A stretch of DNA of 64,000 nucleotides, taken from assembly GCA_963774955.1 (NCBI GenBank), contig CAVZGV010000006.1:90855-154854 (forward strand), read 5' to 3'. This stretch comes from Candidatus Falkowbacteria bacterium (GTDB lineage: Bacteria > Patescibacteriota > Patescibacteriia > CAIXNZ01). The translations under genes and the position numbers were made by a program. A model generated the notes under the pieces. That model saw nothing but the letters and a program-made list of their open reading frames with translations, was not told where the DNA came from and ran no database searches. How positions within the stretch are numbered: position 1 is the first letter of the stretch; every line of letters begins with the position of its first letter. Below, piece after piece: positions 5,102 to 61,789 of this stretch.

Positions 5102-5803
5102 ATGAAAAGAAAACCAAAATCAGCTCCGCATTCCCAAAGATATGCTGGGTTGGTAAGCAAAGTCGACAACAATAAGACTTATTCTATCGAAGAAGCCATT
5201 AAACTGGCCAAAGAAACAGCCACAACAAAATTTGAATCATCCATCGAAGTAGCCATCAGAACTGGTATTGATCCCAGCAAAACCGATCAGCAAATTCGTT
5301 CAACTGCGCTTTTGCCTCATGGCACCGGTAAAAAAATAAAAATCGCGGTAATCGCTCCGGCCGACAAACAAAAAGAGGCCAAAGACGCTGGGGCAACCAT
5401 TGTCGGCGGCGAAGAACTGATTGATGAAATCGCCAAAACTCAAAAAACCAACTTTGATGTTTTGATTACGGTTCCTGAAATGATGAAAGATTTGGCTAAA
5501 GTAGCTAAAATTTTAGGACCTAAAGGTTTAATGCCTAATCCCAAGACTGAAACAGTAACCCCTAATATTAAAAAAGCTGTTGAAGAATTATCTAAAGGCA
5601 AAATCACTTTTCGCGCTGATGACACTGGTAATATTCATCTAAGCATCGGCAAAACCAAGTTTGACGACCAAAAGCTGATCGAAAACTATAAAACTTTCAT
5701 GGAAACTCTGCAAAAAGTTAGACCTAGTACCATAAAAGGAGACTATATTAAAAAAATCACCATCTCTTCCACCATGGGACCAGGCATAAAAGTTCAAATT
5801 TAA
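5102..5803 (+). CDS. rplA: 50S ribosomal protein L1
   Basis: 233 aa with L1 signature regions (KFDVLITVPEMMKDLAKVAKILGPKGLMPNPK), directly after rplK. Confidence 0.95.
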   Translation: MKRKPKSAPHSQRYAGLVSKVDNNKTYSIEEAIKLAKETATTKFESSIEVAIRTGIDPSKTDQQIRSTALLPHGTGKKIKIAVIAPADKQKEAKDAGATIVGGEELIDEIAKTQKTNFDVLITVPEMMKDLAKVAKILGPKGLMPNPKTETVTPNIKKAVEELSKGKITFRADDTGNIHLSIGKTKFDDQKLIENYKTFMETLQKVRPSTIKGDYIKKITISSTMGPGIKVQI

Positions 5804-5834: not shown

Positions 5835-5869
5835 AAAGCCCTCCGAAGCCTCGGCGCAGGAGGGTTTTT
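5835..5869 (+). terminator. rho-independent terminator after rplA
   Basis: aaaaGCCCTCCgaagcctcggcgcaGGAGGGtttttt. Confidence 0.7.
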
Positions 5870-22295: not shown

Positions 22296-22371
22296 GTCCC
22301 GCGGAGCGGGATGCCGCTCTGCGGTATAGATTTGTATCATGCCGCGAAGCGGTATGCCGCTGCGCGGCATT
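22296..22371. repeat. array of four GC tri-loop hairpins in the thrS proximal 5' UTR
   Basis: gTCCCGCggaGCGGGAt, then three units of ATGCCGC-NNN-GCGG(C/T)AT (loops tct, gaa, tgc). Confidence 0.7.
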
Positions 22372-38210: not shown

Positions 38211-39881
38211 TTAATTAACCGATGCAATAGAATTAAGATGCTGCAACTCACCCGCATTAAAAATCAAGACTTCCATTGGTTCCTCCCCTGTCTTAATAAA
38301 ATTATCGGCCTGATCCTTAAAAATGAGTCTGATAGTGTTTGAAGTGTAATTTCGGTAATTGTAATTCCAAAGTTCAACAATATGATCATTTGTTTCCCGA
38401 CGGTCAAAGCCAGTCACCCAATTTTTATGATCAAAGGTCTCGGCAATATAACCGCCGGTTGGATATGATCCCCAATATAAAATTTTACTCTGATAATTTT
38501 TCAAAGTTAACCGCAGATAAGCATTTAAATGTTCTGCGCTGATTTGCTTGTCCGGATAAAATAACTCAATCGCCAGTTCAATGCCATTGCGTAAAACCTG
38601 AGCGCCTTCCAAATTATCAGGCAGGCCAACAAAAAGCAACTTTTGTTCCGATTGATTCAGATTAACTGCCCGTGGTAAATCATGGCGGATAATTTTTTCC
38701 GATAAATCAGCCGCAGTCTGCCAATTATAATTTTTATTGATCAAATTAGCCGTAAAATATAACAACAACAACGCTAAAATAATTTTTCCAGCTATTTTAT
38801 ATCTTTGCAACTGCCAAATCAAAAGACTCAACAAAATACAAAAAATTACCGAGGCCAGATAGACATAGCGCTCCCCCTCATCGCTTAAGTCATTATAATT
38901 CAATAGAAGTACCGGCAGAATTATTATTAAAAAAACGTCAAAGAGCAAAGCAACTTTAAACCCATATTTTTTAAGCGCCAACCAAATTAAACCCATAACT
39001 AACATTAGCACAGAACAAAAAATCAAGGCGTTATACGTAAAAAAGTCCGTTAGATAAACGCGCGCCTGGCCATAGAAGCCTAAATTAACAATTAAAGAAA
39101 CAAACATTTTGAACAGCTTAAACGCATGCAATTGAAATTTTTCCTGGGCATAATAACCGAACGCCAAGCCAATAGCATTATATCTGACAAAAAAATAACC
39201 AATAACCAAGGCCCAATAACCAAATGGCTTTAATATTATATCCTGCCAGCGGAATTTATTAACCGTAATTGCTTCATACAATTCCCAAACTACGATTAAC
39301 AGCGGCAAAGTGATTACAAATTCCTTAGTTAACAAACCGACAATAAAGCTAGCCACGGAAATCAAAAGCCAGGAAAATTTCAATTTTTGCCTGAACAAGA
39401 TATAACCGTAAAACGCCAATAAGTAAAAAAAAGTTGCCATGGGATCAGCCACGGCCGCAATCCAGATCACGGCTTCGGAGTGATTGGGCAAAAGACTGAA
39501 AAATAAGGCCGCTAAAATCCCGATTTTTTGTTTATGTTCAGATTGTTCAAACAAAAGTAAAACCAGCAAATAAACCAAGAAGCAAACGCCGATATGAAAT
39601 ATTAAATTAGTCAGATGATAAGGTAAGGGATTCAAACCACCAATTTGATAGTTAAGCCAGAAAACCACATTAACCATGGGCCTGTAACTGCCGCCCACGC
39701 CCTGCTCACCATAGTAATTGGCTGTAAAATAGTCTCCCAGGCTATGCTGGCTGGTCTGGGTATTATATAGCCAGTCAAAGTCGTCGGACACGAAAAAATC
39801 GTTCAGATTAACAAAATAAAGGCCTAAATTAATGACAATAAGACCTAAGAGTACCCAAAGATGGATTTTGTTGAATTTCAT
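38211..39881 (-). CDS. large polytopic membrane protein, possible GT-C-type glycosyltransferase (PMT/ArnT-like)
   Basis: 556 aa with >10 TM helices and an acidic first loop (NLNDFFVSDDFDW). Family is inferred; no SD sequence upstream. Confidence 0.45.
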   Translation of the reverse strand: MKFNKIHLWVLLGLIVINLGLYFVNLNDFFVSDDFDWLYNTQTSQHSLGDYFTANYYGEQGVGGSYRPMVNVVFWLNYQIGGLNPLPYHLTNLIFHIGVCFLVYLLVLLLFEQSEHKQKIGILAALFFSLLPNHSEAVIWIAAVADPMATFFYLLAFYGYILFRQKLKFSWLLISVASFIVGLLTKEFVITLPLLIVVWELYEAITVNKFRWQDIILKPFGYWALVIGYFFVRYNAIGLAFGYYAQEKFQLHAFKLFKMFVSLIVNLGFYGQARVYLTDFFTYNALIFCSVLMLVMGLIWLALKKYGFKVALLFDVFLIIILPVLLLNYNDLSDEGERYVYLASVIFCILLSLLIWQLQRYKIAGKIILALLLLYFTANLINKNYNWQTAADLSEKIIRHDLPRAVNLNQSEQKLLFVGLPDNLEGAQVLRNGIELAIELFYPDKQISAEHLNAYLRLTLKNYQSKILYWGSYPTGGYIAETFDHKNWVTGFDRRETNDHIVELWNYNYRNYTSNTIRLIFKDQADNFIKTGEEPMEVLIFNAGELQHLNSIASVN

Positions 39882-46572: not shown

Positions 46573-46714
46573 AAAAGTTTATAGAGTTTACTTCAGCCGT
46601 AAGGCCATCGGTCTTGAAATTATTAATTTTAATTACAGTGGCCTGAGAGTTTATTCGAGGGTCGATTTATGGGGTACTCTGAGGGCACCCAAGTCGCTCG
46701 ATAAAAAAGTCTTG

Positions 46715-46789
46715 TGGCTGGGGAGATAGGATTCGAACCTATGAATGCCGCCTCCAAAGGGCGGTGCCTTACCGCTTGGCGACTCCCCA
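46715..46789 (-). tRNA. tRNA-Gln (anticodon UUG), CCA encoded
   Basis: Minus-strand cloverleaf tggggag tc gcc-aagcggtaa-ggc a ccgcc CTTTGGA ggcgg cattc atagg ttcgaat cctat ctcccca g cca. G at position 37 is atypical, so the isotype call is moderate. Confidence 0.6.
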
Positions 46790-47075
46790 AAAATTAAAGT
46801 TACTAATTGTTTAACCGCGTGCTTGCCTGCCGAAGCTTTAGCGAAGGCAGGGCGACTCCCCAAAAATTTAAAACTACTAATTGTTTAACCGCTTGCTTGC
46901 CCGCCAGAGCCTGAAAGGCGTAGGCGGGGCGACTCCCCAAAGGTGTTAATGACCAATAATCAATAACCAATAACCAAATAATTTTCAAATCTCAAATACC
47001 AAAATTATTTTACTAACTTTCAACCGCTTGCTTGCCCGCCAGAGCCTGAAAGGCGTAGGCGGGACGACTACCCAA
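46785..47075 (-). repeat. three tandem ~75-nt pseudo-tRNA-like repeats, each starting with the tRNA-Gln 5' acceptor segment
   Basis: On the minus strand each unit begins ttGGGGAGTCGCC (identical to the tRNA 5' end), then a GC hairpin (ccgcctacgcctttcaggctctggcggg or ctgccttcgctaaagcttcggcagg), a D-loop-like aagc(ac)gcggttaaac and an AT-rich tail. Units 2 and 3 are near-identical. Confidence 0.7.
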
Positions 47076-47326
47076 GGATATCGTGATTAGTTAAACGGTT
47101 TCGTTAAGCGTTAATCGATAATCGTACTACTATTGTATGCGAAAATGGGGCTAAAGTCAGAGAATAATGTGCCATTGTTTAGATAATAAAAGTCGTTCCT
47201 AATTTCGGAACGGCCTTTGTTTGTGATTAAACCATATTGAATAAAGATATAAGAAGATAAATACATCAAAATATTTTATAATAAATGAAACAGCCTATCG
47301 TCATGGCAGACAATAGGCTGTAATTT

Positions 47327-48215: not shown

Positions 48216-50112
48216 TTAACCACTGCTTTTAAAGTTAGTTTTTTCAGGTTTTAAATTTCCAAACCCCTGATCTTGTGCCAAGGCCCTGAAGGTCGGCGAA
48301 ATCGCTGCCAACTCATCAAAACTACTGGCAATCGCTGTCACATGACCGCAGGAATCTCCGTTGGAATCGATCATGATGAATTTGTCGCAGATTCTTCTGA
48401 CCGTGTTCAAACGGTGAGTGACAATCAGTGCGCCTCTGTCTTTGGTCAACACTTTTGCCAGACCAGTCCTGAACCAGCTTCTCGGTGGTGGAATCTAGCG
48501 AGCTGGTCGCCTCGTCAATGATCATGAACTTCGGCGCTTTCATGACTGCGCAACCAATGCCCAGACGCTGGGATTGACCGCCGGAAAGTTTAATGCCGTT
48601 ACGACCGACTTTGGTGTCCAGACCTTCAGTCAACCTTTCGCCAAAATCAATCTGCAGCATTTTCATGGTTTGCCAGACCTGATCATCACTGATCTGCAGT
48701 TTGGCTGCATCAGGCAGGCCATAAAGCATGTTGTAGCGGATAGTGCCGTCAAGAATCTGCGCCTGCTGAGGCACATAGCCGATTAAAGACAGCCAATTTT
48801 GCAGATCCAAATCGCACAGATTTTGGCCGTTGATCCGGATCATGCCCTGACTCGGATCCATATAGCGCAGCAATAAACGCATGATCGTGGTTTTGCCCAC
48901 GCCACTGGAACCGATGAGAGCGACTTTTTCACCAGGAGCGATCTTGAAGGAAATCCGGGAAATAACCGATTTGGTCTGTTCAGCTTCCTTGTGCGGATAG
49001 CTGTAACCGACCGCGTCAAATTCCACTTCAATTGGCTGATCTGGCTCAATCTTTTTAGTTTGGGACGCATACTCAAGTCCTACCGGCAACGTCAGAGCTT
49101 CTTTCATGGCCAGGATGGACGGGGTGACGAAATTAATCTGATGTTCCAGATGTCCGATCCGCCACAGGTTATCGACTATTTGCCGACTCCAGCCAAACAA
49201 GGGATAAAGCAGCCCCAGGGCCATATGTCCATGATAAACCTGATACGCTCCCCAGCTGATTAATCCTAGCAGTAAACCGTAATCGACAAAACCGCGCCAG
49301 ATTACCTGGTAAATAAACCAGAGCCAAAAAGTCCTGTCCGGAACAATCGCCTCCTGAAACTTGTCACAGATGGTCGAAACTTCCTCGTCTTCCTTGGCAA
49401 AATTTTTCACCTTTTCAACGTTATCCAATCTTTCAACCAGATAACGATGAAGGTCACGCCATTTTTTATCAATCGGCAGGCAGACCTGTAAAACTTTCCG
49501 GTTTAAAACCAGACTCCAGGTCAGATGAATGGCCAGCATAACCGTGACGATCAAACCGGCATAGGGACTTAGAAACCATAAGGCGCCAAAGGGTAAAAAC
49601 AGCATCAAGATTGCTTCCACGCCTTCAAACAGCATCATGGCTTCCAGCTGAAAAACTCTTTCCCGGCCCTTTTTGATATTGGCTTCATTAAGCTGGTTAT
49701 GCTCGTCAATATGAGTGCCCAATGATTTTTCGAAAAAAAGTTCGGCCGTGCGCTTATCCAGCTGGCCAATATTTTCCCCGAAAAGATACTCCCGGGCCCG
49801 CATGCTGATCAGCTGGATCAGTTGACTGACAATAACGGTGACTGCATAAAGGCAGATGCCCAAGATGACCAGATTAGCATTCATGGCCTTGGGGTTTAAA
49901 CCATTGAAAACGTAACTTAACGTCCAGGGACCGACAACCATGACGGCGCTGCCAATGGCTTTGACAATTGCCATTTTCTTGGCATACTTTTTCCCCGCAG
50001 GGTTGATCAATTCTTGCCAAACCCAGGTGAACATCGCCTTCATAGCGCGGACTTCTTTGAAATAGTCCCGCAAATTTGTGGCTGCCGCACGATCCAGTTC
50101 TACGTCTTTCAT
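48216..50112 (-). pseudogene. fused TMD-NBD ABC exporter (MsbA-like), frame-disrupted near 48455-48475
   Basis: Walker A GSSGVGKTT, signature LSGGQSQR and Walker B FMIIDEATSSLD in one frame. The D-loop/H-loop tail ALIVTHRLNTVRRICDKFIMIDSNG is in the +1 frame (ORF 48216..48452). RBS gggaggaaaaaATG at 50112. Confidence 0.7.
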
Positions 50113-50591
50113 TTTTTCCTCCCTTTGCCCGCCAAAGCCTTGTGCGAAGGCGGGCTTTTCAAGGTACAACCTAGTTTGCTTTAAATCAGGATAAACAAAG
50201 ACTCTCTTAGCCTGATTTGGCCGAGAGAGTCTTTAACAATATATTTAAACCTAATTTTAGCTTTAAAAATATTATCCGCACAAAAAACTCCTATGGCCAT
50301 ATTTAACCCAAGCCCCGCCAAAAACTGGTGTTACTGTATAAAAAGTTAAATTTTTATGACAATTAAACATAATATTATTGGATTTAAATCTTAAGAATTC
50401 ATTTCACTATAACATATTAACAAGAATATGTCAAGTAAGCGCTGAAAACTTATTACTTAATATAAGACGGCTAAACATTTTAAATATTACACTTCAAATC
50501 GTCCTTAGCCGTTGACAAAAATAAATTTTAGTGTTAAAATTGCATCAAGCTTTAAACATCAAATCGTAAGACACTTTCAAGGAGGACAAAA

Positions 50592-54076: not shown

Positions 54077-54128
54077 CTTTAGGGGTTTCCCGCGCAGCGG
54101 GACTTCGCTCCGCGGAGCGATCCCCCTT
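54077..54128. terminator. nested GC tri-loop hairpin structure after the tRNA pair
   Basis: AGGGGtttCCCGCgcaGCGGGacttCGCTCCgcgGAGCGatCCCCT. Confidence 0.55.
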
Positions 54129-54137
54129 CTCGGCTAA

Positions 54138-56280: not shown

Positions 56281-56310
56281 AGAAATATTTAAATTAAAAA
56301 GTAAAAGCCG

Positions 56311-56340
56311 CGGAGCGGCTTCCCGCTACGCGGGAAAATT
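56311..56340. terminator. paired GC tri-loop hairpins
   Basis: aaGCCGCggaGCGGCtTCCCGCtacGCGGGAaaa. Confidence 0.55.
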
Positions 56341-61340: not shown

Positions 61341-61507
61341 TCAAACACAAAAGGGCCGATGGTTTTACCATCAGGCCCTTTTTTTATATTATCAGTAAAT
61401 ATCTTGACATTTGCCATAAAAGATATTACAATACAGCTAATATACAAATTTAATTGATTTTGCTATAATTAGCTTAACCAAAACATGGTTATTTTTTATT
61501 TAAACAT

Positions 61508-61581: not shown

Positions 61582-61716
61582 CAAGACGACTTAGTAGCTC
61601 CCGCCTACGCTCCGGCTTCGGCGGGCAGGCAGTACTGGAAGAAAAGATTTGAAAGAACGGCCTACCGACTTCGCTAGTAACTTTAAAAATAAAATTTAAT
61701 AGATTTTACAATACAT

Positions 61717-61789
61717 GACTCGGTAGCTCAGTCGGTAGAGCAACTGCCTTTTAAGCAGTGGGTCCCGGGTTCGAGCCCCGGCCGGGTCA
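61717..61789 (+). tRNA. tRNA-Lys (anticodon UUU)
   Basis: gactcgg ta gctc agtcggtag agc a actgc CTTTTAA gcagt gggtc ccggg ttcgagc cccgg ccgggtc a. Confidence 0.8.

Follow-up and report, generated by a model that had tools for sequence, protein, structure and literature searches.

A 64,000-nucleotide (nt) stretch of DNA from a Candidatus Falkowbacteria bacterium (contig CAVZGV010000006.1; hereafter the window) was analysed with respect to its tRNA-Gln gene, which is preceded on its own strand by an array of three tandem units (46715-47076, minus strand, including the tRNA gene). The units are derived from the tRNA-Gln gene, and the best explanation is that they are DNA relics and not genes. 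With moderate confidence, and on the basis of sequence comparison, they are read as tandemly amplified scars, devoid of an open reading frame (ORF), of a nuclease-associated replacement of tRNA genes akin to the phage SegB system. The anatomy of the units, their lack of tRNA and promoter signals, and the association of comparable loci with genes of GIY-YIG nucleases were observed directly.

Anatomy of the array and related sequences in the window

Read on the tRNA strand, each unit consists of a 12-mer (tRNA-Gln nt 1-12), a GC-rich hairpin of 26-29 nt, CAAGC plus A(A/C)GCGGTT(A/G)AA (containing tRNA nt 13-19/21), and an AT-rich tail ending in TTTT, which in the distal unit U3 is a truncated TTTTGG (Table 1). 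The 12-mer TGGGGAGTCGCC was present in three exact copies in 64 kb, at the 5' end of the tRNA gene (46778-46789) and at the starts of the proximal unit U1 and of U2. The sole further match with up to two mismatches was TGGGTAGTCGTC at the start of U3, and all four copies lay on one strand within 300 nt. After each hairpin, (C)AAGCGGT corresponds to tRNA nt 12-19, and removal of the hairpin together with CAAGC restores tRNA-Gln nt 1-19. A tandem period of 74 nt with 84% matches was obtained with Tandem Repeats Finder (TRF), and start-to-start spacings of 73-77 and 135 nt with a repeat search.

An earlier note on this DNA had described three tandem copies of the tRNA-Gln 5' end, in units of about 75 nt that each begin identically to tRNA nt 1-11. 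The same-strand 12-mers and the TRF period confirmed the tandem copies. The length applied to the two proximal units (73 and 77 nt) but not to the distal one, which measures 135 nt because of an extra AT-rich stretch of ~58 nt; likewise, the identity applied to U1 and U2 (12 nt exact) but not to U3, with two mismatches. The hairpin, D-loop-like piece and AT-rich tail named there were found in each unit, and the likeness to the tRNA extended past the first 11 nt, with CAAGCGGT (tRNA nt 12-19) following the hairpins.

The truncation point, the position of the hairpin and the tail are common to U1, U2 and U3, which indicates that the units were copied after truncation. U2 and U3 share an identical stretch of 42 nt, from the hairpin through GCAAGCAAGCGGTT, and the hairpins of U1 and U2 differ by compensatory changes. 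The 12-mer and tail of U2 resemble those of U1, while its hairpin region matches U3; the units are thus mosaic, which points to recombination or conversion among them.

It is very improbable that the units are independent pseudogenes left by the decay of complete, tandemly arranged tRNA-Gln genes, an origin which the earlier note had offered. Each unit does begin with the tRNA 5' end and contain a D-loop-like piece, and a decayed full-length tRNA-Gln copy lies upstream of tRNA-Gln in one other locus (L052). The common break points largely refute this origin, however, and the anticodon arm, T-arm and 3' acceptor strand are gone from the units. No unit was called as a tRNA by ARAGORN or by the Rfam tRNA model, and no other Rfam family was detected in the units (cmscan of 46600-47250, E<=10). 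An assignment as tRNA or tRNA pseudogene (RF00005) was rejected, since only nt 1-12 and 12-19/21 are present and no cloverleaf is formed; the term pseudo-tRNA-like, applied previously to whole units, was abandoned.

The hairpins form a family with five to six members at four separate sites of the window (Table 1) and more in the loci L056, L140 and L143 of distant relatives. In an alignment of eight members, 98.4% of the cells were paired and four of the eight pairs carried changes on both sides, a degree of pairing reached by none of 500 shuffles. Pyrimidine-rich 3x3 internal loops are conserved, and in L143 one hairpin is nested within another. GTAG precedes the hairpin in two copies only, those of U3 and of the tRNA-Lys relic described below. 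No tRNA fragment was seen beside the copy at 50128-50154, and the inverted copy at 5839-5864 looks like the intrinsic terminator of the gene ending at 5803.

Further relics adjoin other tRNA genes of the window. GACTTAGTAGCTC (61588-61600) corresponds to tRNA-Lys nt 1-13 with two mismatches and, tRNA-Lys itself aside, is the sole match at this level in 64 kb. It lies 117 nt upstream of tRNA-Lys and abuts the hairpin 61600-61625, which is followed by GCAGGC and the D-loop-like AGTACTGG; the tail contains CTAGTAACTTTAA. This hairpin had been noted before as one of the same class located 3' of tRNA-fMet; the class was correct, but the hairpin is better read as part of a tRNA-Lys 5' relic unit built like the Gln units. 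The tRNA-Thr relic at 54079-54134 holds in its T-loop a double mini-hairpin, TCCCGC-GCA-GCGGGA plus TTCGCTC-CGCG-GAGCGA, and its removal yields TTAGGGGTTCGATCCCCCTTCTCGGCT, which is identical in 24 of 27 positions to the 3' end of tRNA-Thr(UGU) of L147. Of the five tRNA genes of the window, three are thus adjoined by hairpin-split relics.

Table 1. Features of the array, related features of the window, and clusters of nuclease genes and tRNA relics at loci (L) of relatives
Feature	Position or locus	Strand	Remarks
Intact tRNA-Gln(UUG), CCA encoded	46715-46789	minus	ARAGORN; Rfam RF00005, 63.6 bits
Relic unit U1, proximal	46790-46862	minus	73 nt
U1 12-mer	46851-46862	minus	TGGGGAGTCGCC
U1 hairpin	46826-46851	minus	CCTGCC-TTC-GC-TAAA-GC-TTC-GGCAGG
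U1 D-loop-like piece	46809-46825	minus	CAAGC + ACGCGGTTAAAC
U1 AT-rich tail	46790-46808	minus	
Relic unit U2	46863-46939	minus	77 nt
U2 12-mer	46928-46939	minus	equals TGGGGAGTCGCC
U2 hairpin	46900-46928	minus	CCCGCC-TAC-GCC-TTTCA-GGC-TCT-GGCGGG
U2 CAAGCGGT	46888-46895	minus	equals tRNA-Gln nt 12-19
U2 tail	46863-46882	minus	
Relic unit U3, distal	46940-47076	minus	135 nt + TT
U3 12-mer	47063-47074	minus	TGGGTAGTCGTC, diverged (2 mismatches)
U3 hairpin	47035-47063	minus	same sequence as U2 hairpin
U3 CAAGCGGT	47023-47030	minus	
U3 AT-rich spacer, ~58 nt		minus	(GGTTATT)n at 46948-46977
Sigma70-like promoter	47160-47132	minus	CTGACT-17-TACAAT; only match in region, upstream of whole array
tRNA-Lys 5' relic unit	61588-61716	plus	followed by intact tRNA-Lys at 61717
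Same-family hairpin, tRNA-Lys relic	61600-61625	plus	
Same-family hairpin, 5' untranslated region of ABC-transporter gene	50128-50154	minus	CCCGCC-TTC-GC-ACAAG-GC-TTT-GGCGGG
Same-family hairpin, inverted	5839-5864	plus	CCCTCC-GAA-GCC-TC-GGC-GCA-GGAGGG, then TTTTTT
tRNA-Thr(UGU)-like 3' relic	54079-54134	plus	T-arm and acceptor 3' strand; directly after tRNA-Thr(CGU)
GIY-YIG cluster P0121, tRNA-Gln	L140		relic, ORF, intact tRNA
GIY-YIG cluster P0122, tRNA-Gln	L143		ORF stop codon within intact tRNA
GIY-YIG cluster P0163, tRNA-Tyr	L147-154		relic nt 1-31 and 37-59, ends in T-loop
GIY-YIG cluster P0125, tRNA-Asn	L144-146		resident gene split by cassette
GIY-YIG cluster P0239, tRNA-Gln	L155-162		3' relics adjoin intact gene

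Several other short repeats were seen. Paired 15-nt mini-hairpins (NNCCGC-NNN-GCGGNN) occur in intergenic DNA of the window at 56306-56335, 22297-22369 and 54088-54120, and one such pair, located 3' of the ThiI gene, is followed by a T-run. In relatives, a 30-nt double module, TGCGCC-NNN-GGCGCA plus YYCGCC-TCN-GGCGRR, is found in the T-loop or anticodon loop of relics (L126, L143, L144, L147, L155). Heptamer tandem repeats (AATAACC)n/(GGTTATT)n are present in the window at 46948-46977 and 39194-39223, and heptamer repeats of the ATTACNN or TAGTATT type stand just upstream of relic units in L125, L126/L140 (3795-3830) and L159 (1831-1870).

The array is flanked downstream by a gene of an Na/Ca exchanger (Na_Ca_ex) and upstream by a hypothetical ORF of 242 amino acids (aa) without Pfam match, which resembles a membrane protein (hydrophobic stretches judged by eye). 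The ABC-transporter gene at 48216-50169 (minus strand) seems to be broken up into two overlapping frames (48322-50169 and 48216-48452), possibly because of a frameshift or an error in sequencing, or because the gene is a pseudogene.

tRNA relics and GIY-YIG nuclease genes in relatives

Genomes were scanned with the pattern TGGGGNNTCGCC, a gap of 50-80 nt, and TGGGGNNTCGCC again, which detects duplicated 5' ends of tRNA-Gln only and not of other tRNAs. The pattern was too loose and returned mostly noise (coding repeats, high-GC genomes); the analogues reported are those among the matches listed. A metagenome scan was keyed on the conserved 3' trailer of tRNA-Gln and hence was blind to the units. 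The comparative sample was small and biased. The trailer, CAAGACTTTTTTATCGAG, directly follows tRNA-Gln in the window (46697-46714, minus strand) and occurs also in L009, L123-L126, L140 and L143. It is conserved across loci of the Candidate Phyla Radiation (CPR) despite differing tRNA bodies, and CAAGAC is also present directly 3' of tRNA-fMet. The trailer could act in processing or termination, or could belong to a co-transferred segment.

The succession of nt 1-12, hairpin, D-loop piece, short spacer and intact tRNA-Gln was found in L009, L122, L124, L125, L056 and L143, and a relic upstream of tRNA-Gln in four of five informative CPR loci of the metagenome scan. L009 (Candidatus Buchananbacteria) has one unit with the hairpin after nt 12, the same trailer, and partial synteny via FtsX, and L056 (Absconditabacterales) has two units. 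Removal of the hairpin restores tRNA nt 1-26 exactly in L056 and L122. The 12-mer follows the tRNA of its own genome (TAGCC in both L122 and L125); that of L124 has three mismatches. The break point varies by locus (nt 12, 16, 18, 35, 42 or 55). True tandem tRNA-Gln genes were also among the scan matches listed. Relatives with 81-86% identity in the Na/Ca exchanger had no tRNA-Gln adjoining that gene.

Five metagenome-assembled genomes (MAGs) of Clostridia (L015, L057, L059, L072, L075) show an analogous arrangement: one or two units stand ahead of tRNA-Gln(CUG), and each is made up of tRNA nt 1-16, a hairpin whose loop region has a conserved TGTTCGAA...GAGTTACA, and (A)GCGG. Neither an Rfam match in these units nor a GIY-YIG gene within the 8-kb loci was detected. 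MAGs of Caenarcaniphilales and of proteobacteria carry longer 5' fragments of tRNA-Gln. In a Candidatus Caenarcaniphilales MAG (L095, L110), at least three near-identical 91-nt units (1-2 differences), each of tRNA-Gln nt 1-~43 and a TATAAT-containing spacer, stand upstream of tRNA-Gln, and the contigs end inside the array. A metagenome contig of 1340 nt (L123) has a tRNA-Gln-like 3' end with the perfect palindrome CCTGCCTGCCGGCAGGCAGG in the 3' strand of the T-stem. An upstream copy of the own first 11 nt was found for none of 29 non-Gln tRNAs in the loci examined, a sample too small and biased for comparison; this exact-match control misses the diverged Lys and Thr relics that were later found by inspection.

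Genes of GIY-YIG nucleases were found beside such relics. In all five GIY-YIG clusters examined (Table 1), the nuclease gene has a same-strand tRNA gene at a distance of 0-150 nt, with a partial copy of that tRNA alongside; L056 provides a further case beside a tRNA relic. The relic of L126/L140 reaches nt 55; behind nt 12 a hairpin takes the place of the D-loop, and the anticodon loop holds an insert of 63 nt. This relic is followed by an 81-aa GIY-YIG ORF (PF01541, E=7e-16), the end of which is 4 nt away from the intact tRNA-Gln. Patescibacteria contain numerous homologs of the ORF. The nuclease is a stand-alone UPF0213/YhbQ-type protein of ~80 aa with 1zg2 and 1ywl as closest PDB entries, and it scored 18-26 bits against the group I intron endonuclease model TIGR01453, below the cut-off of 56 bits.

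Sequence similarity indicates that the L143 locus is homologous to the window array. Its positions 2858-2911 match the window spacer plus the next 12-mer (46928-46980) with 85% identity over 54 nt (E=2e-11), and positions 2781-2812, in the nested hairpin, match the core of the U1 hairpin with 87.5% identity over 32 nt. L143 contains an ORF-less unit equivalent to U3. At the place of U2 and U1 it contains a young relic, identical to tRNA nt 1-34 by BLAST (nt 1-35 by eye), which continues with a 30-nt double mini-hairpin, nt 36-42, and then the GIY-YIG ORF. In two different lineages, L143 and L155-L159, tRNA-Gln and its GIY-YIG cassette were seen immediately behind dnaX (DNA polymerase III gamma/tau).

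Insertion of cassettes and replacement of tRNA genes are indicated by loci of relatives. In L144, a resident tRNA-Asn gene is split into a 5' part with a double mini-hairpin in the T-loop and a 3' part consisting of CCTACCGCCGGA, and the halves flank a segment with an intact, different tRNA-Asn and the nuclease ORF. Rejoined, the halves form a perfect cloverleaf with an acceptor pair unlike that of the intact copy, and the junction shows a duplicated CC dinucleotide. L155 and L159 represent the same DnaX-tRNA-Gln locus. Upstream of the tRNA, L159 has an extra 460 nt, in which a second GIY-YIG ORF accompanies a 5' relic and heptamer repeats. The two loci are 85% identical upstream and 96.7% identical downstream of the tRNA-Gln 5' end. 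The relics of L155 have acceptor alleles unlike those of the intact gene, as expected if successive alleles were overwritten. Presence/absence polymorphism combined with co-conversion of the flanks, as expected of a SegB-like cassette, was looked for in relatives and found there.

Proposed origin of the units and competing explanations

The following course of events is proposed. In Patescibacteria, a mobile cassette with the gene of a stand-alone GIY-YIG nuclease of ~80 aa would repeatedly overwrite tRNA genes. The incoming DNA would bring a fresh tRNA gene or its 5' part, and the displaced piece of the resident gene would stay beside it and later gain hairpin insertions in its former loops. 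Each unit of the window represents the first ~20 nt of a tRNA-Gln copy truncated within the D-loop, where AT-rich leader sequence takes over, with a GC-rich palindrome of the dispersed family after nt 12, at the end of the D-stem 5' strand. The nuclease ORF would have been lost at this locus, and unequal recombination or gene conversion, acting on direct repeats of 12-13 bp that the relic and the tRNA 5' end provide, would have multiplied the ORF-less relic. The array is probably passive; it would be transcribed from 47160-47132 within a leader of ~335 nt and be removed by RNase P at the true 5' end.

Several points weigh against this origin. No GIY-YIG gene or remnant was detected in the 64-kb window by tblastn or with a profile hidden Markov model of 120 homologs (filters off, best E=3), so that the link to the nuclease is by homology only. 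The tails of the units show no significant similarity to the 3' ends of the cassette ORFs and thus give no direct trace of a lost ORF. The UPF0213-type nuclease is without a DNA-binding domain, and no UPF0213/YhbQ-type member is known to act as a homing endonuclease. Upstream of tRNA-Gln, single units that lack an ORF are very frequent (four of five informative loci of the metagenome scan); this, together with a 12-mer that tracks the tRNA of the same genome, is also explicable by a selected RNA element. Finally, the origin of the hairpins and their exact placement at former loop positions are not accounted for. A tentative and rather unlikely extension is that the hairpins belong to an undescribed two-part selfish system, in which the UPF0213-type nuclease overwrites tRNA genes and mini-hairpins are then inserted in the D-, anticodon and T-loops of the displaced fragments. 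The hairpins would possibly destroy the nuclease site, block recombinational loss of the cassette, or mark the DNA handle of the nuclease, and the arrays would preserve successive replacements of tRNA genes as a polar fossil record, or be a co-opted leader RNA.

The absence of a nuclease gene from the window also speaks for local events without any nuclease, an explanation judged unlikely overall. An old tandem duplicate of tRNA-Gln would have lost its 3' part, the surviving deletions being those that spared the shared promoter; a palindrome resembling the repetitive extragenic palindromic (REP) type would have landed in it, and slippage between the 12-bp repeats would have made three copies. 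Slippage between direct repeats is a standard route to array expansion. Tandem tRNA-Gln genes and decayed full copies do exist elsewhere (the true tandems of the scan, L052), and hairpins of the same family stand at the non-tRNA sites 50128-50154 and 5839-5864. Such events leave unexplained, however, the GIY-YIG ORF placed exactly between relic and tRNA in the homologous L143 and in four other lineages, the split resident tRNA-Asn of L144, the relic alleles unlike the intact gene, and the hairpin-split relics at three of five tRNA genes of the window.

Since the sole sigma70-like promoter of the region lies upstream of the whole array, a leader of ~335 nt containing all three units is implied. 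The order promoter, leader, unit and tRNA-Gln recurs in L009, L124 and L140. In these three loci, but not in the window, a terminator-like hairpin with T-run was seen just downstream of the sigma70-like promoter; this hairpin may serve as an attenuator or terminate the divergent gene.

The units may be considered, with low probability, as a functional leader in which the 5' mimic of the tRNA and the hairpin form a selected, cis-acting RNA module of pre-tRNA-Gln. Such a module might bind or titrate a factor recognising the acceptor 5' strand and the D-arm, or might govern how the RNA folds and is processed by RNase P, and three copies would be a dosage variant. Selection is suggested by the recurrence of 12-mer and same-position hairpin in distant Patescibacteria despite complete turnover of the hairpin sequence, by co-variation of the 12-mer with the cognate tRNA of each genome, by compensatory changes at 8 of 12 hairpin pairs in the five Clostridia MAGs, and by the location of every unit downstream of the promoter. 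Against it, no Rfam family matched, neither the units nor the leader as a whole folded with a better energy than shuffles (z -0.5 to +0.7), the break point differs among loci, and the 12-mers are decayed in L124 and U3. It cannot explain similar relics that are 3' fragments downstream of tRNAs. In the predicted fold, the 5' acceptor strands added by the units compete for pairing with the only 3' strand, which looks harmful.

Least probable is the suggestion, also made in the earlier note, that the units are repeated promoter or processing modules, each of which drives or processes its own transcript. Weak -10-like hexamers (TTTAAT, TAAATT) do occur in the AT-rich tails just upstream of each 12-mer, but they end 3-4 nt before the +1 of the tRNA, too close for a start upstream of +1. 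No sigma70-like site was found within any unit; tandem sigma70 promoters were rejected in the absence of a -35/-10 pair with 16-18-nt spacing. Clear TTGACA-17-TAnAAT promoters are used elsewhere in the genome (e.g. window positions 61404-61435), and a single promoter precedes the whole array.

Relation to known systems and significance

Elements of the integrase type duplicate the 3' part of a tRNA gene, and the copies lie kilobases apart at the ends of an integrase-bearing island. The copies described here are mostly 5' parts located tens of nt from the gene, without an integrase and with hairpin insertions. An attachment-site scar of an integrase was rejected for the window, where it is the tRNA 5' end that is repeated, at intervals of 73-135 nt, and where the neighbours are the Na/Ca exchanger and a hypothetical protein. 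Integration-site scars were nevertheless the closest of the three origins proposed at the outset, given homologous loci with a GIY-YIG cassette between relic and tRNA. Integrating elements leave fragments of tRNA genes (van der Gulik et al. 2023, PMC9897764), and the likeness consists in partial, non-functional copies near an intact gene and in incoming DNA that restores the gene it interrupts (PMC9897764).

The closest parallel is SegB of phages T4/T6, a free-standing GIY-YIG homing endonuclease inside a tRNA gene cluster (PMC2330249; PMC13096335). It recognises the T-psi-C stem-loop and cuts leaving 2-nt overhangs (PMC2330249), and it drives tandem segmental amplification via microhomology of a tRNA 5' end with its own 3' end (PMC13096335). 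Similarly, the GIY-YIG genes described here stand amid same-strand tRNA genes and are co-inherited with neighbouring tRNA genes. The T-psi-C target compares with relics that end or are interrupted in the T-loop (L140, L144, L147, L155, window 54079-54134), the 2-nt staggered cut with the 2-nt duplication flanking the insertion in L144, and the amplification bounded by a tRNA 5' end with the array; the ORF of L143 ends inside the tRNA. In contrast, SegB is a phage protein and much larger than the bare UPF0213/YhbQ-type domain of ~80 aa from cellular Patescibacteria genomes, a putative nuclease known by sequence. No mention of GC-hairpin insertions in relics was seen for SegB in PMC2330249 and PMC13096335, and the repeat unit of the window (73-77 nt) contains neither a whole tRNA nor nuclease sequence.

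As short, GC-rich, dispersed, intergenic palindromes with compensatory stem changes, the hairpins resemble REP sequences and bacterial interspersed mosaic elements (BIMEs), which likewise are imperfect and often paired and some of which act as terminators or mRNA stabilisers (PMC3733652). They differ by a very low copy number in the window and by their position exactly at former loops of tRNA relics, with one nested in another. Of the GTAG/CGTC tag that is conserved in REP sequences, GTAG was seen before only two copies. No REP-associated tyrosine transposase (RAYT) turned up in the 64-kb window, no search aimed at RAYT having been made. A scan of viral contigs for the hairpin gave only chance matches, in high-GC phages. 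An origin of the hairpin as an expanded copy of the anticodon arm of the tRNA was rejected: CCGCC/GGCGG stems are present in both here but not in L056 or L122, and the likeness was therefore treated as coincidence.

Tandem interspaced guide RNA (TIGR)-Tas systems are common in CPR bacteria, and TIGR arrays are defined by an adjacent Tas gene with Nop domain and by dual spacers of 8-12 nt flanked by box C/D motifs (PMC12045711). Tandem units with palindromic stem-loops in a CPR genome are shared with the array of the window, which was not accepted as a TIGR array: the flanking ORFs are not Nop-domain Tas proteins, no variable dual spacers framed by box C/D motifs (TGATGA/CTGA) are visible, and there are just three units, each starting with a tRNA fragment. 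A CRISPR array was rejected as well, since the whole unit repeats and unique spacers are lacking, in agreement with the earlier assessment.

Group I introns are inserted at position 35/36 of tRNA genes in the same phylum (PMC13011429), and the relics of L126/L140, L143 and L147 have inserts in the anticodon loop at or near this position. These inserts are hairpins of 30-64 nt in truncated copies and not ribozymes, and those of the window are in the D-arm. With Rfam, no intron or ribozyme was detected at the loci of relatives, where only tRNAs and LOOT RNA (RF03000, 81-85 bits; L122 1676-1788 and L144 3357-3470) were found. In L144, the LOOT RNA lies ~110 nt downstream of the GIY-YIG ORF.

tRNA fragments from integrating elements, tRNA-associated GIY-YIG homing endonucleases of phages, and group I introns in Patescibacteria tRNA genes are known. 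No description was found in the literature of mini GIY-YIG cassettes with hairpin-split relics in tRNA genes of cellular Patescibacteria, or of tandem arrays of ORF-less relics. The hairpin insertions at former loop positions may indicate a new small mobile or repair-generated element. If the proposed origin is true, it would explain odd tRNA-adjacent sequences that are ignored or miscalled by annotation tools, give a testable role to the widespread UPF0213/YhbQ-type GIY-YIG proteins, and make the relics usable as markers of past invasions. In these ultra-small bacteria, tRNA genes would then not be static: a minimal nuclease cassette, as the cellular counterpart of SegB, would overwrite them again and again, and this would provide a route for the horizontal exchange of tRNA alleles in reduced genomes.

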